A DNA stretch of 64,000 nt from Pirellulaceae bacterium (lineage in GTDB: Bacteria > Planctomycetota > Planctomycetia > Pirellulales > Pirellulaceae). The translations under genes and the position numbers were made by a program. A model generated the notes under the pieces. That model did no database searches, was not told the origin of the DNA, and saw nothing but the letters and a program-made list of their open reading frames with translations. Shown one piece after another: positions 1,231-62,562 of the stretch. Each line of letters starts with the position of its first letter. Positions within the stretch are counted from its first letter, which is position 1. The stretch covers positions 329,716 through 393,715 of the forward strand of contig CAWKOT010000011.1 in assembly GCA_963851305.1 (NCBI GenBank), written 5' to 3'.

Positions 1231-3814
1231 CATGAATCCAATGACACTACCTATCGCGACCTGGAACTGGCTGTTGGGTGACGATCCCGCTCGCTCGGGC
1301 ACGCCCCGGATGCAGTGGGCCAATCTGCCGGAATCGTGGGGCGTTTTCGTCCTGTTGGCCGCCCTCGGGCGCGATTGGATTCGCCGTCTTCTGGCTGTAT
1401 CGTCGTGAGCAGGATACCTGCCCCCGGCCGGTCAAGATCCTGCTGGCCTGTCTGCGGCTAAGCGTCCTGCTGCTGCTGGTGGCCATGCTGTTACGTCCTT
1501 CGATGTTTTACCAGCAGGTCAATCTGATCAAGCCCAACGTGGACCTGTTGCGGGACGCGTCACTCTCTTTGCGCGGGGCGATCGTTATCAGAGCCAACAG
1601 GATGCACAGCAGATCGCCGAGGCAACCGGTATCGATGTGCGAAAAATCGCCGACGGTGAAGTCAGTCGGGCGGAGCTGCTGAATCGAGCTCTGGCTGATC
1701 CTGCGTGGCTACCGTCGATCCGGGAGGCGGGCACCATTCGGGTCATCGATTTTGCCGACGGTTCGAAATCCGTAGCCGTGGTACCGGCTCGGATCGAACC
1801 TGACCCGTCCCAGCCGTCGAAGGAATCCACGCTACCGGACGCCGCGACCGACGAGGGGGAGGCGTCGTTGGCGGACGAATCGAAGAACCGTTTGATCCGA
1901 CAGTCGCTGCCCGATCTCGTACCGGCAGGACTGGGTACCGATATCTGGCAGGCGCTCCGCGAATCGCTGGAAGGTGCATCCAACCTGGCGGCGATCCTGC
2001 TGGTCAGCGATGGGCAGCACAATGGCTCGGAAGATCCCGTGGAGATGGCGGTCCGGGCACGGAATCTTGATATTCCAATTTATGTGGTCGGGATCGGAGA
2101 TCCGCATCCGCCTCGCAACGTGGCGGTTACCGAAGTGTTCGCCCGCAGTCGCAGCTATCCGGGCGAACCGTTCGAAGTCGAAGCGCTGGTGCAAATCAAC
2201 TCATTCGCCGATCTGGAACTGCCAGGCCAGCTGTCGGTTGATCTGATACAACAGCGAGTAAATCCGCGGACGGGCAAGCTGGAAGAACCTCAGACCGTGG
2301 CCAATCGGAAGCTCGATGTGCCACCAACGGGTGGTCGTATCCGCATTGATTTTGGGCACACGCTGCAGCAACCCGGTCGGTACATTTACACGGTCCGGGC
2401 GGAAACGCTTGACAACGAAATCAACATCGAAGACAACCAGCGCCGATCGGCAGAAGTGGAAGTAGTCGACGAAAAAATTCGGGTGTTGTTGATTGCCGGG
2501 CTTCCATCCTGGGACTACCAGCAGGTCCAACGCCTGTTGCAGCGGGATCCAGCGATTGCTTTGAGTTGCTGGCTGCAGTCGATGGATCAGTCGCGGCCAC
2601 AGGAGGGCGATCTGCCAATCAGCCGGCTGCCCAGAACGATCGAGGAGCTGGGAAAGTACAACGTGATCCTGATGATGGATCCCGACCCCCGGGAATTCGA
2701 CACCGCCTGGATTGAGACGCTGCGGGTGTTCTGCAAGAACAAGGCGGGCGGGTTGATGTACATGGCCGGTCCGCAATTCACCAGCGAATTCGTCACGCTC
2801 AATCGCCTCCGCGGCATTCGGGATATCCTGCCAGTCCGTATCGGCGATGCCCGTTATATCGATTCGTCAGACGCGTTGGCCTTTGCGGCCCCCAATACTC
2901 TGGCCGACATGTTGGTGGTTCGCCCCAATCTGGATCACCCGGTGCTGAGCTTCGATAGCGATGCGGATATGAATGAGCAGCTATGGTCCACGATGCCCGG
3001 TATCTACTGGAGTTTTCCGGCACTGGCGGCCAAACCGACGGCCCGGGTCCTGTTGGAACGCGGAGACCAGTTGGGTGCCGAAGGTAACATCCCGTTGTTG
3101 GTTTCCGGACGATACGGAGCGGGCACGGTCTTGTACCTTGGGTTCCCGGGGACATGGCGATGGCGACCGGTGGGCTTGCAGGCCCAGTTCTTCGACCGTT
3201 TCTGGATCCAGGTCGTCCGCTATCTGGTGGAAAACCGGTCGCTGCAGGGGTCTCGACGGGGTTTTGTCGATACCGACAGAACGGAATATGAACTTGGTGA
3301 TCGGATTACCCTGGTCGGTCGAGTTCTGGACGAACAGTTTCTGCCGACGTCTGAAGAAACCGTCACCGCCAGCATCAGCAGCCAGGATGGCCGGATTCAG
3401 AACGTCGAACTGCAGCGGTTGCCCGGGGATACCGGCCAGTTTGAAGGAAGCACGACGGCAACGCGAACCGGCACTTTTGAGGCGACGATCGCGCTGCAGG
3501 GGAACAACGACCAGCGATTGATCGAACCCATCAGTTATCGGGTTGTCCCACCACGCGTTGAATCCGGGTCGTTCTGGTTGAACGAAAAATTGCTACAGGA
3601 CATTGCACAGCAGTCTGGCGGTGCTTACTTTCGGCTGGACGAAGTGGGCTCGTTGCCGAAGGCGCTACCCAGGCGGGTTCAACGCGTGTCCTTCAAAAGC
3701 CCACCCCGACCGTTGTGGGACTGGAACACCCTTTTTCGATACGCGGCCTTCCTGTTGCCTGTGATTCTGTTGACTACCGAGTGGGCGGTACGAAAGTGGT
3801 ATAAACTGCTGTGA
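1231..3814 (+). pseudogene. BatA-like double-TM VWA-domain membrane protein; reading frame interrupted twice
   Basis: Three successive frames carry one protein. Frame 1 gives the N-terminal TM (MNPMTLPIATWNWLL...VFVLLAALG), frame 2 the second TM (AIGFAVFWLYRRE...LLLLVAMLLRP..VDLLRDAS), and frame 3 the VWA domain (ILLVSDGQHNGSED...IYVVGIGD) and a C-terminal TM. Shifts at about 1370 and 1575. Confidence 0.6.
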
Positions 3815-3829
3815 GGCTGATCCAGATTC

Positions 3830-19983: not shown

Positions 19984-20585
19984 TTACAGTGAACCTTTGG
20001 TGCTGGGAATGGAGCCTTCGGCGTCGGCCAGCGGTACCGACTGCGAACAAGCGGTACGCATGGCAATCCCGCACGACTTGAATGCGGCCTCGGCACGGTG
20101 ATGATCGTTCGCTCCCCGCAGGACATCCAGATGCAAAGTCAAACGACCGGCCATCGCCAGTGACTGAAAGAAATGAGTCAGATTTTCACAGGCGACGTTA
20201 CCCAGCAACTCCCGTTGCAAACCCAGTTCAACCACCGGGAACGGTCGACCGGAAAGATCGATCACGCAACGCGCCAGGGCTTCATCCAGCGGTGCGTAAG
20301 CGTGTCCAAACCTGCGAATGCCCTGCTTGTTGCCGATGCCCGACCGAGCGCTTCCCCAATGACCAGGCCGCAGTCTTCGACCGTGTGGTGATCGTCGACG
20401 TGCAAGTCTCCATTGGCCTGGAGTGTCAGATCCCAATTGGCGTGAAAGGCCAGGGCCGTCAACATGTGATCGAAGAACCCCAGTCCGGTCGAAACATCAA
20501 TCCGCCGATTTCCTTCCAGATCGATCTCCATTTCGATTTGGGTTTCTCGCGTTTGTCGTTGCAAGCGGCAGCTACGTTCACTCAT
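19984..20585 (-). pseudogene. hisB: imidazoleglycerol-phosphate dehydratase, monofunctional, split by a 1-nt frameshift near 20340
   Basis: N-terminal half (ORF 20262..20585: GLGFFDHMLTALAFHANWDLTLQANGDLHVDDHHTVEDCGLVIGEAL) and C-terminal half (ORF 19984..20436: IGNKQGIRRFGHAYAPLDEALARCVIDLSGRPF...) are in different frames. Junction at CTCGGTCGGGCATCGGC. Confidence 0.8.
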
Positions 20586-43292: not shown

Positions 43293-44717
43293 ATGGCAAC
43301 TTTTCTTGGATTGACGTATCTGCTCCTGGAGATCGCATCGCTCGTGGCCGCCGGTCATGCCGTGTTATCCAGTCGGACGCCACAGGGCTCCATCGCCTGG
43401 GTGGTGGCGCTGCTCTCGTTGCCCCTCATCAGCCTGCCGCTATATCTGGTTTTCGGGCGGAGTCGATTCCACGGGCTGGTGAATCTGAGACGTGCGGACG
43501 ACGCTAAATTGGACGAGATCTTTGATGCGGCACAATCAAACGCCCGGGAATTCATTGATCGACGCGTCGACGAACTGGGGGATGCCCAGGTACTGACCAA
43601 GTTGTGCCATGTTCCATTCCTGCGTGCCAATGACACCCGACTTCTGGTCGACGGTGAACAGACGTTTGAAACCATCTTTGCAACGATTGGCCGAGCCGAA
43701 AGCTATGTGCTGGCCGAGTTTTTTATCGTCAAGGATGATCAGCTGGGGCGGGAGTTTCAAGCGGCGCTGATCGCCGCAGCACGTCGTGGCTGCCAGGTGT
43801 ATCTGCTGTTTGATGAAGTCGGGTCGCAGGGAATCAGTAAACGATATGTCAGGGAGTTGGAGGAAGCTGGAATTCGAGTCTCAGGCGTCAGATCGACGGG
43901 AGGAAGCTGGGTCAACCGATTCCAGTTGAATTTTCGTAATCATCGCAAGATTGTGGTCGTGGACGGCTTTGTCTCTTTCGTTGGTGGTCTGAATGTCGGT
44001 GATGAGTACGTACATCGTTCGCAACGATTGACCCCTTGGCGTGATACTCATATGCGGATTGAGGGGCCCGCGACTCTGGCCGTCCAGCTGGCTTTTGTCG
44101 AAGACTGGTTGTGGGCGACGCGCGAGATCCTGAAATTGAACTGGTTCGCCCGTGAAGCGGAGAACGCCGACCGCACGCTGCTGGTCCTGCCCAGCGGTCC
44201 GGATGATGACTTTGAAACCTGCGGCCTGTTTTTTAACCACGCCATCAATTCCGCCAGGTCGCGGATCTGGATCGCCAGCCCGTATTTTGTACCCGATGCC
44301 GGGATCATCAATGCACTGCAGCTGGCCGCCATGCGGGGGGTGGATGTTCGGATCCTGATTCCCGGTCTGGCGGACAAATGGTACGTCAAGGCCGCTGCCA
44401 TGACGTTCGTTCCCGAGGTCGGCCAGGCGGGAGTCAAGATGTACGAATACGGAGACGGCTTCCTGCATCAGAAGGTCGTGCTGGTGGACGATTTGGTTTC
44501 CGTGATCGGGACTGCGAATTTTGACAATCGTTCGTTTCGATTGAATTTCGAGATCTCGATTGTCACCATCGACAAGGCGTTCAATGGCGAAGTGGAACGG
44601 ATGCTGGAGAAAGACTTTGCCAAATCAAAACCGATCGACTTGGACGAATTGAAGACACGCGGTCTGTTCTTCAAGATCAAAAGTCGCGTTTCCCGCCTGT
44701 TTGCCCCGGTCCTTTAG
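43293..44717 (+). CDS. cls: cardiolipin synthase (PLD superfamily, two HKD motifs)
   Basis: N-terminal TM pair. HKD motifs HRKIVVVDG and HQKVVLVDD, each followed by GTANFDNRS-like segments. Confidence 0.85.
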   Translation: MATFLGLTYLLLEIASLVAAGHAVLSSRTPQGSIAWVVALLSLPLISLPLYLVFGRSRFHGLVNLRRADDAKLDEIFDAAQSNAREFIDRRVDELGDAQVLTKLCHVPFLRANDTRLLVDGEQTFETIFATIGRAESYVLAEFFIVKDDQLGREFQAALIAAARRGCQVYLLFDEVGSQGISKRYVRELEEAGIRVSGVRSTGGSWVNRFQLNFRNHRKIVVVDGFVSFVGGLNVGDEYVHRSQRLTPWRDTHMRIEGPATLAVQLAFVEDWLWATREILKLNWFAREAENADRTLLVLPSGPDDDFETCGLFFNHAINSARSRIWIASPYFVPDAGIINALQLAAMRGVDVRILIPGLADKWYVKAAAMTFVPEVGQAGVKMYEYGDGFLHQKVVLVDDLVSVIGTANFDNRSFRLNFEISIVTIDKAFNGEVERMLEKDFAKSKPIDLDELKTRGLFFKIKSRVSRLFAPVL

Positions 44718-44827
44718 GCGGTCCGATGTTCTTCGTTGACGATTGGCACCGAACCGACTTGTATTGGCTATAATTGGCCGGTGCGATAATCGTTCCTGAT
44801 CCAACTATCTGTTTCCTGGAGCCAATC

Positions 44828-45988
44828 ATGTTTCGTTTTTCGGCATCGATTTGTCTGTTGAGCGTCTTGTCACTTGCTGCCGTTTCCGTGGTTTGCGGAA
44901 TGCCAGGCAGTCCGATAATTCATGCTGGAATCCTGGCAGGTAGCGGGCAGCAGCAAGACGATTCGCAAAAGACATCCAAATCCGAATCCGTCGCTACGAT
45001 CCGTTTTGTTTCCGAGGACACGCAGCAGTTGTTCGTCATTCGACCCGCAAAAATTCTGGCCAGCAAGGATTACCGGGAACTGACCAGCAAGGCGGGCGAC
45101 GATTTGGGCCGGTTCGTCAATCGACTGAACAACAACTATTTCAAGTTCGGCCTTGCCAAACTGGAAGAAATTGACGCCATCGTGTTTGCGTCCTGGCCAA
45201 AAACGGAGGGGAGATACTGGCCGCGACACGACACGTTGATTCTCCGTACAGCGAAACGCCATGCGGATGGTTTCGACATGGCCACCCACGCGGTCAAGGA
45301 GGAGATTGAATTCCGGGGGGAAACGATTCTGGTCGTCAAGAAGCCTCTGAATCGTCAATTTGAATTCGCCTGGATCGCCGATGAGCAGACCATCGTCTGG
45401 GGTAACAGTCAGGAATCCGTCGCGGCCGCCATTTCGACCGGCGAGCGTGGTATTGAGTCGCAGCCCTGGTATCGATTCTGGAAGTCCGTGGCGGATGATT
45501 CCATCAGTTTCGTCTGGGTTGATCCGCAACAGGTCTTGCGGGGTGTGCCGCCGCAGTTCGCACCGCTGAAGAAGATTGAAATGGTGATCGGCGGAGTAAA
45601 GCCGGCCAGGAAAACCACGGCAATGGCCATCGGCGTCTGCCCGGATGACGAGTCGGCTCACCAGATCGTTGAAATTTCTCCGGACTTACTGAAAACGGCG
45701 AAGCAAGCTCTGGATTTGCAGCTGAAAGACACGCGTGCTTTCGAGAAGTTTCTTGTGCGCATTTTGATTGACGCCTTGGAACGAACCAAGGTAACCGCGT
45801 CAGGAAAGCTGGTGCGTGTTGAATCAACGATCACGTTTAGACCTGGACGCGTTGGTCAAGCCACTCAATGGAATGTATGCGGCTTCCAAGCGGACCGAGG
45901 CCGCCAACTACCTGCGGCAAAACGCACTTGCCTTCCACAATTTCCATTCGGCCATGGGAAAATTCCCCTCGCCGGTGATGGTGCATGA
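44828..45988 (+). CDS. secreted hypothetical protein
   Basis: Signal peptide MFRFSASICLLSVLSLAAVSVVCG. No recognisable domain. The 3' end overlaps the DUF1559 ORF in another frame. Confidence 0.4.
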   Translation: MFRFSASICLLSVLSLAAVSVVCGMPGSPIIHAGILAGSGQQQDDSQKTSKSESVATIRFVSEDTQQLFVIRPAKILASKDYRELTSKAGDDLGRFVNRLNNNYFKFGLAKLEEIDAIVFASWPKTEGRYWPRHDTLILRTAKRHADGFDMATHAVKEEIEFRGETILVVKKPLNRQFEFAWIADEQTIVWGNSQESVAAAISTGERGIESQPWYRFWKSVADDSISFVWVDPQQVLRGVPPQFAPLKKIEMVIGGVKPARKTTAMAIGVCPDDESAHQIVEISPDLLKTAKQALDLQLKDTRAFEKFLVRILIDALERTKVTASGKLVRVESTITFRPGRVGQATQWNVCGFQADRGRQLPAAKRTCLPQFPFGHGKIPLAGDGA

Positions 45989-46523
45989 AAGTGGGAAAAA
46001 GTACAGCTGGCGAATCGCCATCCTGCCCTATATCGAGCGACAGGATATCTACGACCGCTACGACTTCACTCAGGACTGGGACAGCCCCCACAATCTGGAA
46101 GTCACGTCGGAAATGCCGGATGTCTTCCGCAGTGATACCGATGACGAATCGAGCACCCATACTTCGTTTTTCATGCTCACCGGTCCCGGCGGGCTATTCG
46201 ATGGCGAAACCGCACTCGATTTTCCGCAGATCACCGACGGCAGCAGCAATACGATCATGGCAATCGAAGCCAGGCGGGACGTGCACTGGGCCAAACCGGA
46301 AGACATTGTGATTCAACCGGGTGAGCCACTACCCCCATTCGGCGGATTTCACGAAGGCGGCTTCAATGTCGCCATGGCGGACGGCTCGGTCCGGTTCATC
46401 AGCGAGGACGTGGCGGAAGAGGTGTTGAGGAAACTCTTCACAGCACAAGGAGGCGAGATCACGCAGCCGTCGGAATTGGTGCCGCCAGCGCAGCAGCTAG
46501 AGGAAGATGATCAGCTGCCGTGA
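45816..46523 (+). CDS. DUF1559 (H-X9-DG) domain protein lacking the prepilin-type N-terminal TM segment
   Basis: RTEAANYLRQNALAFHNFHSAMGKFP resembles the post-helix segment of DUF1559 proteins. The C-terminus reads HEGGFNVAMADGSVRFISEDV (H-X9-DG). No N-terminal GFTLIEL helix. Reading frame open only from 45795. Confidence 0.6.
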   Translation: MLNQRSRLDLDALVKPLNGMYAASKRTEAANYLRQNALAFHNFHSAMGKFPSPVMVHESGKKYSWRIAILPYIERQDIYDRYDFTQDWDSPHNLEVTSEMPDVFRSDTDDESSTHTSFFMLTGPGGLFDGETALDFPQITDGSSNTIMAIEARRDVHWAKPEDIVIQPGEPLPPFGGFHEGGFNVAMADGSVRFISEDVAEEVLRKLFTAQGGEITQPSELVPPAQQLEEDDQLP

Positions 46524-46775
46524 AAACGAACCTCTTCTCCGGGTTCAGGACTGATGAGTCGCCAGGCATTCCTGCCAGACAGATATTGCTCTTCAACATG
46601 TCATACCAAGTCGAAGTAGGTAGCATCCCGATACGATAGATCAGCCGACAATCCCACCAATTCCCTGCTCTCAAGTTCAATGAATTTCTGTCGTAGGTTC
46701 TTGCCGGCAAATACCGACCCATCCAATCCCGAAGTCTGGCATGAACCCGACTGGCGAAGTTGAGGCCCTTGCCGT

Positions 46776-47399
46776 CTAACGATTGTTGCCCGAACTGGAA
46801 CTGGCGAAGAAACTCTTGCCGTTGCCGACCAGCATTTCCGGGTTCCGTTCCAACTGTTGGCAGGTGATCAACGGATGGTTGATGGAAAACTGTTGATCCT
46901 GTCGGATTTGCTGGCGCGCGAATTCCTGGAACATGCGGCTGGGGTCAATGGATCCTCCCGACATGGTGCCGTTGATAGCTTGGCGGGCTGTAGACGGGTT
47001 GAGCGAACTGAACCGTTTGGCCATGTCGTCGAAAGCGGATGATCCGCCGAGTGCTTTCAGTCGTTCGCGATGGCTGTCGACCACCCGTTCGGCCCGTTCA
47101 TTCGTTTCCGCCTGTTTCAGCTCGCCAAACAACTGCACCGCATAACCCGCCTCGGCCAGCAAATCGTCGGCGGACAGAAATCCGGTGGCCGCATGAAATA
47201 TTTCGCCGGCGGGCGTCATGAAAATGGTCTGGATATTCTGTTTGCCATTGCCACGAATACATGTTCCGGCCGGTTCGCCGGGCCGGTGCCGAATCAATTG
47301 ACCGGCGGTTGGGTCCCCTTCGGTGTTGGTGTGGGTGTTGACGAATTGCTGATTGAAAAGTTGCTGAATGCGAGGATCGGAGAACGTCACGGTTCTCAT
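46776..47399 (-). CDS. hypothetical protein
   Basis: 207-aa ORF. Its frame is contiguous with the upstream 98-aa ORF and separated from it by a single in-frame TGA. Confidence 0.3.
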   Translation of the reverse strand: MRTVTFSDPRIQQLFNQQFVNTHTNTEGDPTAGQLIRHRPGEPAGTCIRGNGKQNIQTIFMTPAGEIFHAATGFLSADDLLAEAGYAVQLFGELKQAETNERAERVVDSHRERLKALGGSSAFDDMAKRFSSLNPSTARQAINGTMSGGSIDPSRMFQEFARQQIRQDQQFSINHPLITCQQLERNPEMLVGNGKSFFASSSSGNNR

Positions 47400-47414
47400 G
47401 GTGTGGCCCGCACT

Positions 47415-47925
47415 TCACATGAAACCGTTCAGGTCTCCCAGAACCCGCATCCACATTACCGGCCGATCATCCCGTTCGCCTTTAACACCGGCCGCGCTGC
47501 GGAGTGCTTGCCGGATATCCTGAGTCCAATCGATGCCATACCGTTGATAGGAAATCCGTCCGGGCTTGTATTCCCTTTTGTCGCGGGACCGAATCCTGGG
47601 GGTCTTTTCACTTTTTGAATCGTTGGATGTTTTGCTGTCCCGTTTTTTTCGGGCCACCCGCAGAACGTAACGCCTGTCAGCCGGGGACAACTGTCCCAAT
47701 TCGACATCCATGCTGGAATCATCCGCAAGAAGGATCGAGACGATTTTGTCAGCCGGTTCATACGCTGAAAAGGTCGCCTGAACCTGTTGCCCATCTTTGC
47801 TGGTCCAGGTGCGGGCTTTCGGTTGAGCCTGAACGACCTGGCAAACGCAGGCCGAGGCCGATGACGGCCAGCAGCTTACTGATCTGGACTGGATTCAACG
47901 TCGGAAACATCCTGGAGTTCGTCAT
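47415..47925 (-). pseudogene. secreted basic hypothetical protein with a frameshift between the signal peptide and the mature part
   Basis: MTNSRMFPTLNPVQISKLLAVIGLGL is a signal peptide in one frame. In the next frame, from about 47845, the ORF reads ...AQPKARTWTSKDGQQVQATFSAYEPADKIVSILLADDSSMDVELGQLSPADRRYVLRVARKKRD... down to 47415. Confidence 0.4.
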
Positions 47926-48179
47926 CTTTTTACCTCGATTCTGTTCTCTCCCTCTCCCAATTTCCAGGAGTTCGAAAGAACCTGTCGGCAGACCGAAATT
48001 GGGCTCGTTCAAGGACAAAGTCGAATGGAAACTCGTCGCGTCACCCAGGATTGATGCAAAATCGGGAATTTTTCATTTTCTTCCTGTTTGAAGCGCGAAT
48101 TCATGGCGTCCCGTTCGTTACAGACATGTGTAGTCACGATTTATGTCCTGGTCGCGTCCGATTGGAAAGGGAAAGAACC

Positions 48180-49001
48180 ATGAAACTGAAGGAAATGCTG
48201 CTGGTGTTCGCGTTGGTTGGTCTGGTCTGGTGTGATGGCGTTCAAAGCCAGAATGCTGAGCAAGCCGAAGATCCATCGGAACAAATGTACGAGATCGACT
48301 TTCCCGGCGGTTCGTTGGTCGAATATATCAATTTAATTCGAGACCTCGAGATTCCTCGCATTGATTTTGATGGACGGAGGCAACCGGCGAATATTTTCAT
48401 CGCTGATAGTGCTCGTAATTTGCAGGTTCCCCCGGTCCAGGTGACCACCAACATGCAGGGTGCGCTGGGAATTTTGGAGATGCTCTCCAATGGTTCCAAT
48501 GGGTTTCAACAGATTCTCGTCAACCTGGATCCCAGCGAAACGATTACGGTCATCAGCGTCGATGGCGTCGTCCCTTTGACGGTGGAAGTCATCAACAGCA
48601 GACAATTGCTGAACCATATGAAGAAAGAGAGCCTGTTGTCCGCCATTGAAATCGGCCTGCAGATGTTGGGTGATTCCGGGGGAATCGAATTGAAGTTGCA
48701 CGAAGAAACCGGGCTGCTGTTCGTCAAAGGTGTGGAACAGAAAACAGAACTGGTTAGAAGAATCATCGAACAACTTTACGTGGCGAACGCGCCTGTCCTT
48801 CAAGGTCGTGGCATGAGTGGCGGTGGAAGTGGTGGCGGTTTTCCTACTGGTTTCGGCGGTGGAAGTGGTGGCGGTGTCGGTGGTGGCGGTGTCGGTGATG
48901 ACGGTGGAAGTGGCGCCGAAATTGATCGTGGCGGTGTCGGCGGGGGCGTGTCTGATGGTGGAGCTCCCGGGAAAGGTAGTACTGGCCCCGGTAACAAATA
49001 G
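48180..49001 (+). CDS. secreted protein with a Gly-rich C-terminal tail
   Basis: RBS-like GGAAAGGGAAAG upstream. Signal peptide MKLKEMLLVFALVGLVWC. The C-terminal 60 aa are almost all Gly/Ser/Val (GGGSGGGFPTGFGGGSGGGVGGGGVGDDGGSG). Confidence 0.5.
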   Translation: MKLKEMLLVFALVGLVWCDGVQSQNAEQAEDPSEQMYEIDFPGGSLVEYINLIRDLEIPRIDFDGRRQPANIFIADSARNLQVPPVQVTTNMQGALGILEMLSNGSNGFQQILVNLDPSETITVISVDGVVPLTVEVINSRQLLNHMKKESLLSAIEIGLQMLGDSGGIELKLHEETGLLFVKGVEQKTELVRRIIEQLYVANAPVLQGRGMSGGGSGGGFPTGFGGGSGGGVGGGGVGDDGGSGAEIDRGGVGGGVSDGGAPGKGSTGPGNK

Positions 49002-49074
49002 GGAGAGCTTGGGCCGCTTCGCGGGGGCGTCTTCCCAAGCGCGAGGCGACCGTTTTGGTTACAATCCAGAAACC

Positions 49075-49723
49075 ATGGATACCACGTTGACGAAACCACG
49101 GATTGCAGCCATGTCGTCGGACCAGGAATCGCATGCCGATCCGTCGGCGGCTGTCTGTTGGTCCACCACGACCCGATCAATCGCCGCCGGGGATACGACC
49201 GCCTTGGCCATCTTCTACGAATTCGCGTTCGACATCATGTATCGCGAAGCGGCTCGAATATCCGGCCGGGATGAACCAACCTGTCTGGATATTGTTCATG
49301 ACGCCATGCTTAAAGCGATGCGGTGCATGAAGCGTCTTGACGACGCCCCATCGGTAGCGAGCTGGTCGCGGGCGGTGGCGAAATCGGTGACTTACGACTG
49401 GCTGCGGAACGAGGCGCGGAAACGAAGACTGGCCCAGCGGCGGCCTGCGGCAGATCCCGTGGAAGATTCTAACGCGTCTGACGAAACCGAACAGCCTGGA
49501 AGAGTTTGAATTACGCGACGTCCGTTTGCACTGGCTGGAACAGGAGCTGCAACAGCTGCCTGACGATTTGCGGGGCCTCATTTCACTCCGCTATCGGCTG
49601 GGCTGGTCGCTGCAGAAAATTGGTCAGCGGGTGGGTTTGAAAACGGGTGCCGTCGATGGGCGGCTGCGACGTGCTATTGAAAAACTGAAACAGAAAGCAG
49701 AATCCCAGTTCGATGAACGATAA
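49075..49723 (+). pseudogene. ECF (sigma-70 family) RNA polymerase sigma factor, region 2 and region 4 in different frames (shift near 49490)
   Basis: Region 2 (FYEFAFDIMYREAARISG...DIVHDAMLKAMR) lies in the ORF ending at 49509. The region-4 HTH (LRGLISLRYRLGWSLQKIGQRVGLKTGAVDGRLRRAIEKL) lies in ORF 49526..49723, whose frame is open upstream back to 49442. Confidence 0.7.
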
Positions 49724-50220
49724 CACGCGAAAATACGCCATGTCGAATCTCAGTCGCGAAGGCCGGAAACGACGTGCTGAGATGCTGCCACAACTACAGC
49801 AGCAGATGGAGGTCCTGCAGCGGAAACGAAGAATCCGCAGCCGCCTGGCCATCGCGGCGGTGGTTTTGATTGCGGCGGCGATTTTGTGGCCCAGCCTGGC
49901 AGGCAATCTCTCCACGATGGAATCGATGGCGACACGGGTGAATGATGCCTAACACAAACCCTGACTCAACGGCCACGTCGACGCCAACGGAGGCCTTTCC
50001 GAAGCATCCGTCCTCGTCGGAGCCGCGCGATACCGAACCGAACGTGGTTCATGACCGGCCGGGCGTTCTCGATCGTTTTCTGGTCAACGACACCTCGGTC
50101 GACGGCAGCCTGGAATTGGAAATGGTCTCCGACGACGAGTTGCCTGGTCTGCTCAGCGAGGCCGGCCAACCTGCTTTTCTCGGTAGAATCGACGGCCAGA
50201 TGGTTCTGATCCCTCGTAAA

Positions 50221-50229
<9 letters not shown>
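49713..50229 (+). CDS. putative anti-sigma factor (single TM), possibly frameshift-joined to the following 95-aa ORF
   Basis: The 79-aa ORF directly after the sigma factor has a basic N-terminus and one TM (LAIAAVVLIAAAILWP). Its stop overlaps the ATG of ORF 49942..50229 (GTGAATGATGCCTAA). Confidence 0.4.
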
Positions 50230-51586
<1,357 letters not shown>

Positions 51587-51658
51587 TTTCCGCCGGTGAC
51601 CAATCCGCCATCCGTTTCGAGCAGAGTCCAGGCAGGTTGTTCGGTGACCGTCAGGTAA

Positions 51659-52586
51659 TCATCGTCCGGTCGTATCGATTTCTGCTCTGCCGCTATCGAA
51701 TACGCTCTGGCACAGACGCAGACCGATCAGTGGAAACAGAACGGATAGTTCTGCGTCGGTCAACGGATGGACGTGGTGGTACCCGGCAACAACCTGGGCG
51801 GCATCCTCTGCCGGTTCGTCGCGGTCCAGCATCAGGTAGGCGCACGCGATTGCCAGATCATTGATGGCTGTTGCGTAAACGAGATCGCCGAAATCGATCA
51901 AGCCAACCGACTGGAAGGTCTGGTCCGGCGACGATTCAATGATCCAGTTGTAATCGTTGGGGTCATTATGAATGACGCCGACGTCCAGTTCAGCAATTCG
52001 ATGGGCGATGGCCTGGTAATTTTTCAGATAATGACCGACCAGTTCGCCCTGGCGGCGATCCAGTCGCGGCAGATTTGTCTGGACGATTTCCGGGCCGCGT
52101 GAGAGGTCCCAATTCAGCCTGCGGCGGGCACGCCGATCGTGATTCAAGAGTCTCAAGGCGTTATCGATCGTGGCCAGGCCAGAGCCGATGCGATGCAATA
52201 ACTGAGGGGTGCGAACCGGGCATTCCGCCAGAGGCTCTTCCCGGCACGAACGTTAAGCATCGTACGTAACAGGCTTTGCCCGATTCGCCGTCACGGACCT
52301 GGATGATGGGCTGCCGATCCGTCGATTTGATAACATTGGGCGTCACGACGCCATCCACGGCGAAACACAACTGCAGGGCCTGGTTCTCCAATTCAAGAAA
52401 ATCGAAGTCGGCGTGGTCGTTGGAAATCTTCAGAACGAATTGATCGTGATGCGATTCGATGCAGAAATTCTGGTCGCGTTCGCCGGTCAGCGGGCGGGCT
52501 TTCCCCAGGATGCCGAAATGATCGGCCGCAATCTGTTCGGCCTGAATGGTCGTAAACGCTGGCCGAGCCAGCAGAGGTTCCGGCAT
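51659..52586 (-). pseudogene. aminoglycoside-phosphotransferase-fold (APH/HYKK-like) kinase, frameshifted near 52180
   Basis: The N-terminal ORF 52161..52586 (FGILGKARPLTGERDQNFCIESHHDQFVLKI) and the C-terminal ORF 51659..52198 (VIHNDPNDYNWII...GLIDFGDLVYATAINDLAIA) together form an APH-type kinase fold. Confidence 0.65.
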
Positions 52587-52600
52587 AAGTTGTCGTCGAA

Positions 52601-53701
52601 TCAGGCGGCAGCGGCGGGTCGGGTATCGGCCACCCGATTGTAGACGTTTTCCACCGCATCGATCAAACGCCGCGGCGCGAAATTGTCCACGACCGAGAGT
52701 CGTCCCTGTTGGCCAAGTTGCGAACGCAATTTCTCGTCTCGTGCCAGGGATACGATGGCCTGAGCCAACTGCCCAGGGTTGGCCGGGGGAACCAGCAGCC
52801 CGTTTTCACGATGCCTGACGATTTCAGTAAGACCGCCGGTACGACTGGCAACGACGGGGGTTCCGGTCATCAGCGATTCGATCGCCACCAGGCCCAGAGG
52901 TTCTTCCAACGAGGGAACTACCGTCATCTCACTGGCGGCCATGTAATCGCAGACATTGGCCTGTCGGCCAACCCAACAGGTTCGCCCCGCCAGTCCGTTC
53001 CGCAGCAGGAAGCGGCGGATTTGTCGGGTGTGCGATTGGCGGCGTCCAAAGCGGCCGACGAACACGACTTTCAATTGCGGTAACTCGCGGACAATGTCGG
53101 GCAGCGCCCGAACCAGTTGCAGATGGCCTTTGCGAACAGAGATTTCGCCAATCATGCCAATCAGGAAGTCGTCCGGTCGCAGTCGCAGTTTTTGGCGAAC
53201 GGCCTGCACCGCCCGTTGGTTCCCCTTTGGTTGACGATCGGAATCAGTACAACAGTAGATCGTCTCCATACGCTGCGGCGATATCCGATTGACGCGGCGA
53301 TGATAGTCGAATGTGGCCTGGGAATTGGCAATCACGTAGTCATTGAAATTCCAGTGAAATTCAAGATGTCGATTATGAGCCGTTGCGACGACCGGCACGC
53401 CCGTCAGCCATTTCAGTCCCACACCGAAATTCTGTCCGCGGGTCATGTGCGAATGCATCAAATCAAATCGCTGGTCGCGAACGTAGCCGGCCATTCGTCT
53501 AAGTTCGGTCAGCGGAAGTCGTGTCATTTCAGATTCGACGACCCGCACCAACGAGGTATCGACGTGGGATTGAATCCACGAACCCGGCCGGCAGAGGATG
53601 GTGACCTGGTGGCCGCGACGAACCAGGTCTTCGCTGAGCACTTTGCAGTAGACCAGCGCGCCATTCACACCACGCCCGGAAATAATCTGCAAGATCTTCA
53701 A
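52601..53701 (-). CDS. GT4-family glycosyltransferase
   Basis: MKILQIISGRGVNGALVYCKVLSEDLVRRGHQV (GT-B N-terminal domain) and EPLGLVAIESLMTGTPVVASRTGGLTEIV (E-X7-E region). Confidence 0.8.
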   Translation of the reverse strand: MKILQIISGRGVNGALVYCKVLSEDLVRRGHQVTILCRPGSWIQSHVDTSLVRVVESEMTRLPLTELRRMAGYVRDQRFDLMHSHMTRGQNFGVGLKWLTGVPVVATAHNRHLEFHWNFNDYVIANSQATFDYHRRVNRISPQRMETIYCCTDSDRQPKGNQRAVQAVRQKLRLRPDDFLIGMIGEISVRKGHLQLVRALPDIVRELPQLKVVFVGRFGRRQSHTRQIRRFLLRNGLAGRTCWVGRQANVCDYMAASEMTVVPSLEEPLGLVAIESLMTGTPVVASRTGGLTEIVRHRENGLLVPPANPGQLAQAIVSLARDEKLRSQLGQQGRLSVVDNFAPRRLIDAVENVYNRVADTRPAAAA

Positions 53702-54239
53702 GAATCAGGTTCCCCTACGGCTTCGGCGTGACGGTCCAACCGGCCGTCTACGACGGTCATCGGCGCGGCTGTCCGAAGATCGGATTGCGTCGCGTGAGGG
53801 GGGATTATTTCAGAATCGACGGACTTCATGCAAGACAGCCTTGCATTGACCGAAACCTGCTTACCCGCCCATCGACTGCAAGCTACCGTAACAGGGCCGG
53901 CGCGCGTTCCCGGCCACGCTTTTCGAAACGGCGTTGATGTCGGCAGTCAAAATGCCATTCAACGTGGTCGACGATTCTGCTACCGTCCCCACAGCAACCC
54001 GGTGGGCGCATCAATACGGTGGGACAGGCTGCCAAGTTGTCAAAAGGTCGGAAACGACAGGCTGGCGGTCAGAGTCGAGAAAAATTTGCAGACCTAGGTG
54101 GTCTGTCAAAACTGAATTGACTGATAGCTGAATTCGCAAGCCTTCCGGGTTTCGAAGCATGGGCAGGCGGGCCGGATTTCATCTCGGGCCTGACTCAATG
54201 CGGTCGAATCCACAAAACGCTGGATGGAGTTACAGAAAA

Positions 54240-55610
54240 ATGGCAAGAAACGAACTTGTTTCGACTGTCTTGTTGGCTCTGTTGGTCGTGGCCCTGTCCG
54301 GCTGCGGAAAAAAAGAACCGACAGCAAATAAGGCGGCCGGCAACACAAACCGGTCGACTTTTACCAGCCCTGCCAGCGATTTTGCCGGCGAGATAACGGC
54401 ACTGACAGCAAATGCCCGGCAGTCGGAAGAGAATTTCGAATTCGACTTGGCCGTAAAGCGTTGGGAACAAATACGCCAGAAAATCGTGGCCCAACTTGGT
54501 CAGGATTCATGGCAAGCCCGGAATGCCGGTTACGCACTGGAAAGCGCGCGGGCCAAGTCGCAATTTTCCGCGGAACAGCGGCAACAGTTGCAGCGCCTCA
54601 GGCAAATCAATGATCAAGTCAAGCAGTCGTTTCAGGATAAGCAGTTCAGTCAGGCCCTTGGGCAAAGCGTACAGTTGTACAATTTGCAGGCTCAACTGAC
54701 CGGAAAAGAATCGATCGAAGTGGGGCAGCTGGCCATTCAGATCGCTACCCTCCAAAGTCAGTTGGGGCAAATCGACTCGGCAATTCATCATTTTCATCAA
54801 GGAATTGAGATTCTCAGACTGCGCGGCTATGGAGACCACCCCGAACTGCAGTTGGCGCATGCCGGGTTGGCCGCGGCGTACGCCCGCAAGGGGCAGTTGG
54901 CACCCGCGGTGGCCAACCAGAAGCACGCGACTCGAATCGCGGGGGTAATTGAAGGCATGCAGAGTACCGAATATGCCACGCAGGCGAATCAACTGGGGGT
55001 TCTCTATCATCAGGCGGGAAATCTACAGGTCGCGCATGACATACTGCACGCCACCAAGGCGATCCGTGGCCGCGCCCTGGGTCAACGCAGCACGGCCTTT
55101 GGCCACAGTTGTCTGAATCTGGGGATTGTCGCACTCGATCAGAAGCAATTGGATGAAGCGGAAGAGAATTTCACCGTGGCTGAACAGATCTTTGCAGCCG
55201 AATTCGGGGCAGGCAACTCACTCTCGTCCCGCTGCAATTCACACCTGGCGACGATTCAGATGCTTCGCAATCGACCCGACCTGGCAGAGCGATTTCTGCG
55301 GGATGTCGTCGATGACTTTACCGAAGGCGAATCGAGCGATCCGGAAGGCCTGCTGGCCCATCGATATCGGTTGGCGATTGCATTGGCCCGTCAAGGGAAA
55401 TACGAGGAAGCAGGTCCCTTGCTCGTTGCGGTCATCGATCAACAGCGGCAGCGTTTTGGCGAGTCGGATGCAAGAACAATGAAATCACTGAAAGCGTACG
55501 TTCTGCTATTGGAGAGTTCTCATCAGTACGATGCGGCGAAAGCGGTCCGGCAACAGATCAATCGTGTTGCGAAATCAGTTTCGGGCAACGAATTTCAGCC
55601 CCTGTACTGA
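54240..55610 (+). CDS. TPR-repeat lipoprotein
   Basis: Lipobox LLVVALSGCGKKE after the signal peptide. Multiple TPR units (LAHAGLAAAYARKGQ..., YRLAIALARQGKYEEA). Confidence 0.65.
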   Translation: MARNELVSTVLLALLVVALSGCGKKEPTANKAAGNTNRSTFTSPASDFAGEITALTANARQSEENFEFDLAVKRWEQIRQKIVAQLGQDSWQARNAGYALESARAKSQFSAEQRQQLQRLRQINDQVKQSFQDKQFSQALGQSVQLYNLQAQLTGKESIEVGQLAIQIATLQSQLGQIDSAIHHFHQGIEILRLRGYGDHPELQLAHAGLAAAYARKGQLAPAVANQKHATRIAGVIEGMQSTEYATQANQLGVLYHQAGNLQVAHDILHATKAIRGRALGQRSTAFGHSCLNLGIVALDQKQLDEAEENFTVAEQIFAAEFGAGNSLSSRCNSHLATIQMLRNRPDLAERFLRDVVDDFTEGESSDPEGLLAHRYRLAIALARQGKYEEAGPLLVAVIDQQRQRFGESDARTMKSLKAYVLLLESSHQYDAAKAVRQQINRVAKSVSGNEFQPLY

Positions 55611-55827
55611 TCCAATATTCGACATAACCGAATCGAGTGGAACCGACTATCCACCGCCGGACCCGTACCACCGTTTTAATTGACAGATTTTTGAATGGTA
55701 GTGAGAATGTGGGTAGAATGAATCGGAGGTACAGCGAGTCATACGATTCGCTCGACCGACGATCCCTTTCCGGCTCCTACCTGTTTGCCGATTCATTGTT
55801 TCCATCTGTGACCCGCAGGCTATCAAC

Positions 55828-56538
55828 ATGAAGAAATCGCTCAGCAAAAAACTTGGAATCTACTCAGCGCTCGGCGTTGCCGGAGGCATGACGTTTGGTA
55901 CGACGGCCTCTGAAGCTGACATTATCTTTACCGACTTCACGGGAAGTGCGACTTCCAGTGAACCCCTAAACATCGACATGGACGGTGACTCGGTCACGGA
56001 CTTCGTATTCGATTTTGCCGTTGCCGGTCCCAACGTGTACAACTCCTTCTCCAACTGGGCCCGGATGAGAGGGCTGAACGGGAACGCGTTCGTCAATACG
56101 GATCCTGCTCCTTACGCAGGTGGACAGCCATACGGTCCCAACAACCTGGCGTTTGGCGCCACGATTTCGGGTCAGTCTTTCTACGGTGGTCCCAACGGTG
56201 GACCCATGCAATTGGCCTACACAGCGACACTGGTCAGTACCGTTTGGGGGCCGTTTGGAGGATTGAATTTTCCGGACAATCCCGCCAACGGATTTGTCGG
56301 CGTTCAATTCGAAACGGGAGGTGGTGACCAGGTTTTCGGCTGGATTCGTGTGCGAGTTGAAGGGGACGTGACTAATGCGAACTTCGAGGATGCCCTGATC
56401 ACCGTCAATGGCTTTGCCTACGCTACGCCGGGTACGGAAATCCTGGCGGGACAGGTTCCAGAACCGAGTTCGGTCGGTCTGCTGGCACTGGGAGCCGCCG
56501 GACTCGCTTTTCGCCGCCGGAAGAAAGACGCTGCTTGA
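55828..56538 (+). CDS. PEP-CTERM sorting-domain protein
   Basis: Signal peptide. C-terminal VPEPSSVGLLALGAAGLAFRRRKKDAA is a PEP motif followed by a TM and a basic tail. Confidence 0.8.
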   Translation: MKKSLSKKLGIYSALGVAGGMTFGTTASEADIIFTDFTGSATSSEPLNIDMDGDSVTDFVFDFAVAGPNVYNSFSNWARMRGLNGNAFVNTDPAPYAGGQPYGPNNLAFGATISGQSFYGGPNGGPMQLAYTATLVSTVWGPFGGLNFPDNPANGFVGVQFETGGGDQVFGWIRVRVEGDVTNANFEDALITVNGFAYATPGTEILAGQVPEPSSVGLLALGAAGLAFRRRKKDAA

Positions 56539-56602
56539 AATCAGTTGCCAAGACCTGCGTTTCAATAATTGCCAAGAGTTGTCATATTAGACAGCTCTTT
56601 TT

Positions 56603-59383
56603 TTGTGCAATGGGGAACGCCGGATGAATAAGCGACTGGCCAGGAAGGTGCTGTTGATCGGTTGGGACGCCGCCGACTGGCAGCACATCAATCCACTGTT
56701 GGACGAAGGTTTGCTACCCGGTCTGGAGAGTCTGATCAATCGAGGCGTGATGGGAAACCTCGCCACGTTGCATCCGGTACTCTCACCCATGCTCTGGAAT
56801 TCCATTGCGACCGGCAAGACGGCCGATAAGCACGGCGTGTTGGGATTCACCGAACCCCTTCCCTCAGGCCGGGGCGTGCGCCCCTTTGCCAGCACGCGAC
56901 GAAAGGTCAAAGCCCTCTGGAACATCTGCCATCAAAACCAACTGCGGAGCAACGTCGTAGGTTGGTGGGCCAGTCATCCGGCGGAACCGATCCGGGGCTG
57001 CATGGTATCGAACCTGTTCAACGGTCTGCAACGCGGTCCCGATGGCAGGTTGAAGATCACACCGGGCACATTCCATCCTCCCGAAAAATCGCCGCAATTG
57101 GCGGAATTGAAGATTCACGCGGATGAAATTACCGGCCAGGATATCCTGCCCTTTATTCCCAGGGCTGCGAAAATCGATCAGTCATCGGATCAGCGACTGG
57201 CCACGGCCTGCAAGTTGCTCTCCGATTGTGCTTCCATTCAGTCGATTACGACGCATCTTATCGAACACGAAGCCTGGGATCTGACGGCCGTCTACTTTGA
57301 CGCCATCGATCATTTCTGTCATGCATTCATGTATTACCATCCTCCTCAGATGCAAAATGTAAAGGATGAAGATTTCCAGCTGTACAAGGACGTGATCCGG
57401 GGAGCGTACCAGTTTCACGACATGATCCTGCAACGGTTGATGAATCTGGCCGGGGACGATACGACGATCGTGCTCTGTTCAGATCATGGTTTTCAGTCGG
57501 GTCGTACGCGACCGCTGTCGACACCGATTGAACCAGCTGGACCCGCTGCCTGGCACCGTGACCTGGGCATCATCGTGATGGCGGGCCCCGGTATCAAGCA
57601 GGACGAACGCATCTACGGCGCCAACATCATCGACATCACACCCACCATTCTGTACCAGTTTGGCCTGCCGGTAGGCGACGATATGGACGGCCGAGTATTG
57701 ATGGATGCCTTTCAGGACCCCGCGCCTCCCCAGACCATTCCCAGTTGGGATGAGGTTCCCGGGTCGTGCGGGATGCACCCAACTGACGTGGACGAAAACA
57801 ATGAGAACTTGAGCGATGAACAATCGCAGGAGTTGCTCAAGCAGTTTGTCGCACTGGGGTATATCGAAGATCCGGGAGAAGATCTGGAGAAGGCCGCGAC
57901 CAATTGTCAGTTGGAATTGGATTATAACCTGGCGCGGGTCTATCTCTCCACGAATCGCTACCGGCAAGCGGTTCAGGTCTTGCGTGATCTGGTCGATCGC
58001 GCTCCCTGGGACGACCGGTTCTGGAAAAACCTGGCGCACTGCTACTTCGAAATGGGCTATTTTCGCCAGGCGCAGAAAATCATGGAGGCCCTGTATCGGG
58101 ATATCCAGAATCCACCGGTATTTTCCCGGGTTTTTCTGGCCAAAACCTGCTTTGAATTGGGCGAATATGAGCAGGCCGAGGAGCATTTGAATATCGCGCT
58201 GGCGCTCAATCCGCGGCAACCCATGATCTATGTGATGACGGGCCGGATTCTGTTGCGAAACAACCGCTTGTTCGAAGCGGAATCCATGTTCCAGAAGACC
58301 CTCGATGTGGATCCGGACAACGCCCATGCCTGGGTGGGCATGGGCGAAACCTATTTGCGACTCAACCGCCATGAAATGGCTGCCGATGCCGCCCTGTCGG
58401 CGCTGGCGTTGTTGTACCGGTTGGAGCAAGCCCACTGGATATTGGGTGTGGCGATGCTGCGGATGAAGCAACTGCCGCGGGCGAAGCGGGCGTTTCAGAC
58501 CCTGTTGAAATTCAAATCCAGCCGTTACGAAGTTGCTGCCCGCCGTCAGCTGCAGAAAATCAGCCTGTTGCAGGGACAGACCGTGGAAGCTGAACGGCAG
58601 GGCCAGCAGGCTCGTCAGAAACTTGCCCGTCGGCGAACCCAACGACTGGCCGATCAGGAACGAAAAGAGGAACTGCTCGAACTGCCGACCATCCCGTCGA
58701 TTCCAGACAGGATCCAGGCGCTCCAGCTGGAACGCCCCCGCTCTCAGGACAAGGCCAGGCAATCGGCGCGTCGTTGCTCTGGCCGTACGTTAACCATCGT
58801 GTCCGGACTGCCCCGTTCCGGAACATCGCTGATGATGCAGATGCTGGCTGCCGGGGGCTTGCCCGCCCGGACCGATGGCCAGCGGACGGCGGACGACGAC
58901 AATCCACAAGGTTATCTGGAATGGGAAGCCGTCAAACGGTTGCACAAACATCCCGAGCTGTTTGACGACGAATCGCTGGATGGCAAGGCGATCAAAGTCA
59001 TTTCGATGCTGTTGACCGGACTGCCCAGCCAACATCGTTACCGCCTGATCTTCATGTCGCGGCCGACGATTGAGATTGCCGCGTCCCAGCGGAAGATGAT
59101 CGAGCGACTGGAATCGGAAGGTGCCAGCGGTGACCTCGATGCCATCGCCGAGAAGCTCGCACGGCATCGTGACCAGTCATTGCAGTGGCTTCGTTCCCAG
59201 GCTGCAATCGACCTGCTGGTCGTCGAATATCCCAATCTGATTGCCCAGCCAGAAGCGGAGGCTCGGCGAGTCGCGGAATTCCTGGGCCCGGACCTGATCC
59301 AGCATCCGGCGCGAATGGCTTCGGTCATTCAGCCTGATCTGTATCGTCAGAAACGATCCGTTGCGGATACGAAGGCACGTTGA
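56603..59383 (+). CDS. tripartite fusion: NPP-type (alkaline-phosphatase-superfamily) phosphodiesterase/pyrophosphatase + TPR repeats + sulfotransferase domain
   Basis: The N-terminal 400 aa (KVLLIGWDAADWQHI..., HPVLSPMLWNSIATGKTADKHGV, DAIDHFCHAF, TIVLCSDHGF) match the type-I phosphodiesterase/NPP family. The middle 280 aa are TPR repeats. The C-terminal 230 aa carry the sulfotransferase PAPS 5'-phosphosulfate-binding loop TIVSGLPRSGTS. Confidence 0.7.
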   Translation: MCNGERRMNKRLARKVLLIGWDAADWQHINPLLDEGLLPGLESLINRGVMGNLATLHPVLSPMLWNSIATGKTADKHGVLGFTEPLPSGRGVRPFASTRRKVKALWNICHQNQLRSNVVGWWASHPAEPIRGCMVSNLFNGLQRGPDGRLKITPGTFHPPEKSPQLAELKIHADEITGQDILPFIPRAAKIDQSSDQRLATACKLLSDCASIQSITTHLIEHEAWDLTAVYFDAIDHFCHAFMYYHPPQMQNVKDEDFQLYKDVIRGAYQFHDMILQRLMNLAGDDTTIVLCSDHGFQSGRTRPLSTPIEPAGPAAWHRDLGIIVMAGPGIKQDERIYGANIIDITPTILYQFGLPVGDDMDGRVLMDAFQDPAPPQTIPSWDEVPGSCGMHPTDVDENNENLSDEQSQELLKQFVALGYIEDPGEDLEKAATNCQLELDYNLARVYLSTNRYRQAVQVLRDLVDRAPWDDRFWKNLAHCYFEMGYFRQAQKIMEALYRDIQNPPVFSRVFLAKTCFELGEYEQAEEHLNIALALNPRQPMIYVMTGRILLRNNRLFEAESMFQKTLDVDPDNAHAWVGMGETYLRLNRHEMAADAALSALALLYRLEQAHWILGVAMLRMKQLPRAKRAFQTLLKFKSSRYEVAARRQLQKISLLQGQTVEAERQGQQARQKLARRRTQRLADQERKEELLELPTIPSIPDRIQALQLERPRSQDKARQSARRCSGRTLTIVSGLPRSGTSLMMQMLAAGGLPARTDGQRTADDDNPQGYLEWEAVKRLHKHPELFDDESLDGKAIKVISMLLTGLPSQHRYRLIFMSRPTIEIAASQRKMIERLESEGASGDLDAIAEKLARHRDQSLQWLRSQAAIDLLVVEYPNLIAQPEAEARRVAEFLGPDLIQHPARMASVIQPDLYRQKRSVADTKAR

Positions 59384-59444
59384 CGAAGGCGCGTTGATTC
59401 GGCGGACCCGCAAATGGAAGCAGAACAAAAGCTGGCCAATTCGG

Positions 59445-61563: not shown

Positions 61564-61609
61564 TTTGGCGTCCTCGCCACGCGGCGAATCAGATTGAAGC
61601 AGCTCTCGA

Positions 61610-62562
61610 CTAACGGGCTGTGGTGCTTTCGTGAGCCGTTGGTCCGCTCTCGTCGGTATTCCCTGCTGCGCTCAAAATATCCTCAACGGAAACGTCTCCC
61701 GGCAACATCTCTGGGGAGAATCCGAACGGTCTGACCAGTGCCAGATGTTCTGGCGTGCCGATGAAATTGGCCAGCTCGCGATTGAAGGCATCACGCAGTT
61801 GAGCATCCTGCTGACGAAAACCGAAAGCGCCAGAATCCCTTGACCGATCGGCCATCGATCACCGGATCGGTGAAGGGGTCCGCCTTTTCGATGGAGCCAC
61901 TTGCTGCCTTCTGCAGCAGTTCATTGGCCGTCAAGGTTGTCGCTGCCAGCGCGTCGACGCGATCGGTTTTCAGTCCCTCGATTCCGCTGGGGTAGTCCGG
62001 GAAAATGACGATTCGATCATCCGGCACACCCAACGCCTTCGCGTAACCGTGTTCTACGCTGCCTCCCATGACTCCGATTCGCGCCGTGGAATGTTGCGCG
62101 ATGTCTTCAAAGCTGTGCAGTTCCAGAGGATTGTCCGCAGCCACGATAAACGACTCCCCGACGGCATAAGTCGGGTTGGAAAAACTGATTTCCTCCGCCC
62201 TGGCAGGCGTGATGTACATGCCGGCTGCAATCACATCAAATCGACCTGCTTTCAGTCCCGGGATCAGCGAACCAAATTCGGTCAATACCGGTTCAATCTG
62301 TCTTGCGCCCAACCTTTTCAGGATCAGCCGGGCAATCTCTGGAGCTTCGCCAGTGATTTGACCGCTGGAGCTGCTCAGGTAACCATACGGCGCTTCGTTG
62401 GCATATCCAATTCGGACGTGTCCCGTCGTCCGGATTTTTTCCAGCGCAGGATCCCGCGGGTCCATTACGGGATTGCGAAACGAAAAAAAAGGTCACGCCT
62501 GCCGCGACCATCAAAAGCAGGCCCAATCCCCACGGTCCAACTTTGTTCTGTTGATCTAGCAA
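61610..62562 (-). pseudogene. family-3 periplasmic substrate-binding protein of the ABC system, split over three frames
   Basis: Three pieces in three frames: the signal peptide (ORF 62293..62562, MLDQQNKVGPWGLGLLLMVAAGV), the main lobe (ORF 61791..62465, HVRIGYANEAPYGY...AGMYITPARAEEISFSNPTY) and the C-terminus (ORF 61610..61855, FGFRQQDAQLRDAFNRELANFIGTPEHLALVRPFGF). Confidence 0.65.

Follow-up and report, generated by a model that had tools for sequence, protein, structure and literature searches.

Ten of the roughly 50 genes in a 64-kb stretch of a Pirellulaceae contig are split by frameshifts. This raises the question of whether the organism is losing these genes or whether its DNA has been misread. 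The window analysed here (the whole stretch of 64,000 nucleotides (nt), positions 329,716 to 393,715 of contig CAWKOT010000011.1, assembly GCA_963851305.1) has a G+C content of about 57% and contains 19 single-base shifts. A finished genome is expected to show zero or one such broken gene, and the frequency in the window is far above chance. In the public NCBI/ENA record for the 1,161,145-bp contig, the fragment proteins stand as its gene calls. We consider it highly likely that the shifts are single-base consensus errors of a long-read metagenome assembly and not mutations of the organism, which most likely has intact copies of all ten genes. The finding is almost certainly a data-quality warning rather than biology. 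The initial annotation, made from the sequence alone, had favored assembly indels over old pseudogenes, and independent sequence and evolutionary tests support that choice.

Location and repair of the frameshifts

Open reading frame (ORF) pieces were taken stop-to-stop and matched to Pfam profiles, and frames were also followed with a three-periodic Markov/Viterbi hidden Markov model (HMM) trained on the long ORFs of the window. Neighboring same-strand pieces in different frames match successive parts of one Pfam model. The HMM frame tracker recovers the switches seen from these pieces, and it indicated no additional mid-ORF switch wherever the window is well behaved. Every event is 1 nt, with a spectrum of 15 insertions versus 4 deletions. 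The affected genes are as follows, the first five with scattered events and the last five forming a cluster at 45.8–52.3 kb:

1232–3814, plus strand: BatA-like/VWA membrane protein, 860 amino acids (aa) once repaired; shifts at 1369 and ~1572
19984–20585, minus strand: hisB (imidazoleglycerol-phosphate dehydratase), 200 aa once repaired
23697–25119, minus strand: Ser/Thr protein kinase, 473 aa when intact
25208–25908, minus strand: RluA-family pseudouridine synthase, 233 aa once repaired
61610–62562, minus strand: EhuB-like ectoine/hydroxyectoine ATP-binding cassette (ABC) substrate-binding protein, 316 aa once repaired
44828–46523, plus strand: secreted protein with a C-terminal DUF1559 domain, 564 aa; +1 at 45836
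47415–47925, minus strand: hypothetical secreted protein, 169 aa; +1 at 47846 (plus strand GGCAAA[C]GCAGG)
49111–49723, plus strand: extracytoplasmic function (ECF) sigma factor, 203 aa when intact; +1 at 49495 (CAG[C]CTGG)
49713–50229, plus strand: gene downstream of the sigma factor, possible anti-sigma, 171 aa; +1 at 49953, beside TAA
50221–52586, minus strand: APH-kinase/class-III aminotransferase fusion, 785 aa; +1 at 50507, 50673, 50997, 51360, 51555, 51619, 51701, and 52235

A shift is present within about 50 nt of all 13 coordinates that the initial annotation had listed. It had counted 12 to 14 affected genes where we find ten, since two of its gene pairs are each a single gene: the secreted basic protein belongs with the DUF1559 domain in one 564-aa gene, and the APH-like kinase with the class-III aminotransferase in one 785-aa gene. 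The aminotransferase, reported as hit at least three times, is indeed multiply shifted, but the merged gene carries eight shifts rather than about four. The DUF1559 and anti-sigma genes, named as possibly affected, each have a +1 event.

One-base edits produce a single continuous, full-length ORF for each of the ten genes. In five of them, the repaired protein also matches its family over the full length or in one stretch (IGPD, PseudoU_synth_2, TIGR02995, PRK06148, and the kinase, whose length equals that of a read-derived copy, L004, described below). The hisB pieces match IGPD 1–56 and 51–144, and the repaired protein matches IGPD 1–144 of 144 with 205 bits and is colinear with PDB homologs. 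At the junction, 77 of 80 homologs have Ala, with no length difference, and the lesion is therefore a single GCN codon that lacks its third base. The protein-based hisB scan, which returned only relatives of ≤60% identity, was used only to establish this Ala; when JGI (Joint Genome Institute) metagenomes were scanned for the hisB junction, allowing a flexible gap, there was no match. The kinase pieces match Pkinase 2–50 and 53–255. For rluA, the N-terminal piece matches PseudoU_synth_2 1–126 and the repaired protein 1–152 of 152, and it aligns with RluD. The C-terminal frame of rluA is 25208–25561; ORF 24927–25508 was considered for this part and rejected. The binding-protein pieces also match SBP_bac_3, and the repaired protein scores 265.6 bits against TIGR02995 (EhuB; cut-off 190.9) in one stretch, 33–284, that spans both junctions. 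In the BatA-like gene, a transmembrane helix and a DASLS (DxSxS-like) motif run on across three frames, and deleting 1369 and adding one base after 1571 yields the single 860-aa ORF. These two junctions rest on helix and motif continuity plus the HMM; no Pfam or NCBIfam model confirms the repaired N-terminus, and the VWA match is weak.

Within the cluster, Sigma70_r2 and Sigma70_r4 of the ECF sigma factor fall in different frames, and the possible anti-sigma gene is present as pieces of 79 and 95 aa. The class-III aminotransferase is found in five pieces (model positions 10–44, 47–164, 192–273, 275–330, and 328–403), and APH also matches. Thousands of homologs of ~785 aa share this APH plus Aminotran_3 architecture, and the repaired fusion protein matches PRK06148 with 919 bits and has no stops. 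The aminotransferase half resembles ethanolamine-phosphate phospho-lyases, which suggests that a kinase/phospho-lyase pair may be fused in one protein. Some homologs of the fusion bear an additional M23 peptidase domain.

Independent sequences of the same genes

A related contig from another assembly (ERZ25039603 contig_86667; 39 kb, with a Flye-style name) is 92–96% identical to window positions 33986–59383. All five genes broken in the cluster are uninterrupted there (564, 169, 203, 171, and 785 aa), the fusion gene occupying 16952–19309 of the relative's sequence (L006). Compared with it, the window has 12 single-base insertions and no deletions within those five genes, over the interval from 45836 to 52235. 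The relative, for its part, is split at seven places where the window is intact: 47080, 54235, 54366, 54712, 54818, 57933, and 58201. Two of these seven errors are at GCGC. The splits in the relative are 113 + 82 aa versus a 207-aa ORF in the window, a form that a read-derived contig also has; 171 + 271 aa versus a 483-aa TPR protein, an ORF supported by a 469-aa Mariniblastus homolog; and 521 + 386 aa versus a 926-aa phosphodiesterase-TPR-sulfotransferase ORF. ORF-breaking indels thus occur in both assemblies at comparable density and in different places, a pattern expected from a data-quality problem but not from lineage-specific loss.

The two sequences are not equally close throughout. Identity is 98–99.4% across 44.0–47.4 kb, versus ~92% in 35300–43000 and 50500–59400. 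The block at 44000–47400 suggests either recent recombination between two lineages or a locally chimeric consensus. The DUF1559 gene is 98% identical to its intact 564-aa ortholog. The shift at 47846 is the least certain event, judging from its surroundings, which are only ~74% identical to the relative. A scan of GTDB representative genomes with the GT4 neighbor returned only a Mariniblastus metagenome-assembled genome (MAG) with 68% amino-acid identity and no useful synteny.

Exact-protein look-ups gave six Logan contigs of 2.0–3.8 kb, assembled from the reads of run ERR11523668, that match the window at 99.6–100%. One of these, L004, contains the intact 473-aa kinase, from which the window differs by the extra G at 24705 and two single-nucleotide polymorphisms (SNPs). 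Another, L010, is in frame through the DUF1559 site at 45836. Here the window reads ACGTTTA, the relative ACGTTA, and L010 AGTTTA, so that the window, one base longer than both alleles, looks like their merge or chimera. At the rluA junction, L008 and L004 terminate on either side, at 25471 and 25465. At 62448, L007 differs from the window yet is also out of frame (GC-ATGG), which means that both versions are wrong at that GCGC. Read contigs are also broken where the window is intact: L007 at 62395, where the window reads through the conserved binding-protein segment IGYANEAPYGY, and L009 at 29284, where the window has an intact DCC1-like gene with a CxxC motif. The noise is thus a property of the data rather than of a single lineage.

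Site by site, the base is absent from independent sequence at 24705 and 45836, contigs end at 25471, both versions are wrong at 62448, and the read contigs equal the window at 20338 and 61832; for the other 13 sites we found no independent sequence. The read-level data are noisy at particular sites, and neither version is uniformly correct. Away from GCGC, the read contigs differ from the window by 0.1–0.4%, which indicates more than one haplotype in the sample.

Sequence context and selection

The seven events outside the cluster have the following contexts:

1369, plus strand: +1 insertion, CTCGG[G]CGCGATT, within GCGC (distance 0)
1571–1574, plus strand: −1 deletion, TT(G)GCGCGGGG, in or adjoining GCGC; placed within 1569–1580, HMM switch at 1558
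20337–20338, minus strand: −1 deletion in the hisB Ala codon (cgg gc- atc), 10 nt from GCGC and hence not at the motif
24705, minus strand: +1 insertion, coding strand CCGT[G]GCGCAGG, 1 nt from GCGC
25471, minus strand: −1 deletion, CCGGG(G)CGCTC, GGGG to GGG, abutting GCGC
61832, minus strand: +1 insertion, coding strand GGATTC[T]GGCGCTTT, 2 nt from GCGC
62448, minus strand: +1 insertion, coding strand GGATCC[T]GCGCTGG, 1 nt from GCGC

Six of these seven lie within 2 nt of GCGC, although just 2.6% of positions are that close (binomial P = 2e-9). The GCGC events mostly change the G count or add a T directly 5' of the motif; in short form, TT(G)GCGCGG (~1572) and TTC[T]GGCGC (61832) are both at GCGC. 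Disagreements between read contigs and assembly gather at the same motif (8 of 20, P = 1.6e-8), several of them GCGC versus GTGC. GCGC is also the most under-represented G+C-rich 4-bp palindrome in both the window and the relative: against a second-order Markov expectation, its observed/expected ratio is 0.64 and 0.61, respectively, compared with 0.99 for CGCG. A restriction-modification system that has long acted on GCGC in the lineage would be compatible with this under-representation.

The 12 clustered insertions (45836, 47846, 49495, 49953, and the eight in the fusion gene) are not at GCGC, and they share no common motif among GATC, GANTC, CCWGG, and GCGC. Approximately 7–8 of the 12 adjoin SNPs relative to contig_86667 versus ~46% expected, which is not significant.

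We also compared 20 genes within 35–59 kb after the inserted bases had been removed to bring the window into the frame of the relative. There were no stop codons in the 20 projected genes except for one TAA directly beside the insertion at 49953, in an ambiguously aligned spot. The ratio of nonsynonymous to synonymous substitution rates (dN/dS) is 0.19–0.51 for repaired genes versus 0.07–0.32 for intact neighbors; the ranges overlap and the repaired genes reach higher, with the two highest values each resting on fewer than 20 substitutions. The DUF1559 gene is at 0.19 and the fusion gene at 0.23. The repaired genes thus appear to be under purifying selection comparable to that on their intact neighbors. 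Eight neutral indels are normally accompanied by many tens of unconstrained substitutions, which are not seen in the eight-shift fusion gene.

Origin of the shifts

The account that we favor, consensus error, shows two modes. In one, a single base, usually G, is gained or lost immediately 5' of GCGC; this mode covers both shifts of the BatA-like gene, the kinase, rluA, and both shifts of the binding protein. Its likely cause would be methylation of GCGC in the lineage, which may have disturbed basecalling. The other is the dense run of 12 context-free +1 insertions at 45.8–52.3 kb, probably a poorly resolved consensus where co-occurring strains pile up, as the one direct example at 45836 suggests. 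A strain-mixed consensus for the cluster is our best guess and the weakest link of the account.

Several observations weigh against consensus error. An insertion-only cluster is unlike the textbook nanopore error profile. Two shifts are reproduced exactly in read contigs, and for neither did we find an intact copy from an independent source: at 20338, L001 matches the window with 100% identity, and at 61832, L007 is identical to the window. The hisB shift, moreover, is not at GCGC. We found no read contig over 48–52.3 kb, where the fragment proteins are matched in NCBI/ENA only, and searches for homologs of the relative's sigma factor and of a repaired 230-aa stretch of the aminotransferase gave no read-derived protein that was near-identical. 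The platform was very probably Nanopore with Flye-type assembly, a view drawn from the 1.16-Mb contig, the Flye-style names, and the error behavior, and we infer GCGC methylation solely from the error pattern and the under-representation of the motif. The initial annotation had also argued from the damage to essential-looking genes. This is reasonable but is not itself evidence. The shifts that the read contigs reproduce are in these two genes. It is unlikely, though worth stating, that a minority of the shifts (hisB 20338 and EhuB-like 61832) are genuine. If these two shifts were genuine, the uncultured Pirellulales-like planctomycete would be a recent histidine auxotroph that has lost an ectoine-type uptake protein. 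Separately, the error pattern may indirectly reflect a methyltransferase specific for GCGC, both in this lineage and in its relative.

The mechanism proposed in the initial annotation, systematic homopolymer-length errors from long-read or flow-chemistry sequencing, is improbable as a general cause. Three events do alter a run of three (GGG at 1369 and 25471, TTT at 45836), and several GCGC events alter the G count before CGC. Against this, 13 of the 19 events are in no run of identical bases, none touches a run longer than three, and 15 of 19 are insertions, in which the added base equals its neighbor in 5 of 15 cases versus ~44% by chance. Longer runs, such as the G6 at 53798, leave genes unbroken. 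The homopolymer explanation fails because contacts with runs and neighbor-matching inserted bases are so few. The junctions that had been placed in short runs reflect this: the rluA shift does touch GGG, whereas the base lost from hisB is the third of the Ala codon just after GGG, and the sigma-factor junction, assigned to AAA, is actually an extra C in CAG[C]CTGG. Genuine recent inactivation, with the lineage losing hisB, the kinase, rluA, the ECF sigma module, the APH-aminotransferase, and the ectoine-type binding protein, is quite improbable. It would account for the hisB and 61832 shifts being in both the assembly and the read-built contigs, and the public record does contain the ten genes in broken form. 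But intact alleles of two of the genes are in the same read set, the fusion gene with eight insertions retains its constraint, and the neighboring his genes and transporter permease genes are intact. Natural indels have a deletion-biased, slippage-driven spectrum, and the 15:4 excess of insertions, mostly outside runs, is the opposite. We found no unambiguous nonsense mutation, multi-base indel, insertion sequence (IS) element, or deletion bias, and dN/dS does not approach 1 in the broken genes. The association with GCGC would also need a basis in indel mutation, and we know of none.

Two further possibilities concern the population and the ribosome. Real strain polymorphism, with broken and intact alleles segregating and the assembler taking the broken ones, would fit the presence of more than one haplotype among the read contigs. 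We regard it as very improbable: ten genes would have to carry broken alleles simultaneously, the window at 45836 is longer than either observed allele and resembles a merge, and at 62448 assembly and read contig have each lost the frame, but not in the same manner. Programmed ribosomal frameshifting or transcriptional slippage could in principle restore the frames, but nothing supports it specifically and its probability is negligible. The shifts go in both directions and number up to eight per gene, there are no long A/T or slippery tracts at the sites, and the sites are not conserved, the close relative and other homologs having uninterrupted ORFs.

Consensus error also has documented parallels. 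Methylation-linked C/T and A/G miscalls are documented in Nanopore R10.4.1 assemblies (Lohde et al. 2024, PMC11610573; also PMC11610603). As in that study, errors here gather at a short motif, there is C/T-type ambiguity between reads and consensus at the motif (GCGC versus GTGC), and it is at this very motif that separate sequences of one DNA differ. The published errors are mainly substitutions (R/Y ambiguity), in contrast to the ±1 indels seen here, where the platform and the methylation are deduced. Residual indels are acknowledged in Nanopore-only MAGs assembled with Flye plus Medaka (Sereika et al. 2025, PMC12313526). These share with our case a megabase metagenome contig, Flye-style names (here in the related ENA assembly), and frameshift-split genes inside otherwise conserved operons. 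In that work, however, low coding density was tied to low coverage and homopolymers >6, unlike the GCGC and non-repetitive contexts found here.

Decaying genomes, such as those of Mycobacterium leprae and recently host-restricted bacteria, likewise have a high share of frameshifted genes. They differ in showing nonsense mutations, larger deletions, IS expansion, relaxed selection, and deletion bias, none of which is seen here.

Taken at face value, about one gene in five in the window would enter the annotation as a pseudogene or be broken up into two or more hypothetical fragments. The pathways assigned for histidine synthesis and compatible-solute uptake would come out wrong, and the conserved 785-aa kinase-aminotransferase fusion would be missed. 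ORF-breaking assembly errors need not sit in homopolymers; a GCGC hotspot and regions of mixed strains can do more harm. Motif-specific and strain-mixture errors, which in the window outweigh homopolymer errors, will escape homopolymer-aware polishing or filtering.

Some further features of the window were recorded. A 101-nt direct repeat (41723–41823 and 42970–43070; 88% identical, with a 28-nt exact core) flanks an Lnb_N-like gene, and both copies are largely absent from contig_86667 (alignment gaps of 31 and 134 nt). Upstream of the sigma factor lies a 273-aa secreted protein that contains a Gly-rich (GGTGGN) repeat at 48865–48903 and is 27 + 9 nt shorter than that of the relative; these are in-frame length differences without a frameshift. 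At 36254 and 36358, near the 5' end of a 349/408-aa ACP_syn_III_C-like gene, two 1-nt differences from the relative in CCC/CC runs alter the apparent start and N-terminal extension of the gene. On the minus strand at 33057–35383, ARAGORN identifies a dense array of 14 tRNA genes (Cys, Arg x2, His, Ala, Thr, Leu, Asp, Val, Ser, Gln, Asn, Gly, and Lys), and Rfam adds two more tRNA matches, at 33057–33122 and 35315–35383. The large ORFs 33240–34067 and 33349–34110 overlie this array and are spurious. For several of the array tRNAs the match to the model is weak or truncated, perhaps itself a result of indel errors.

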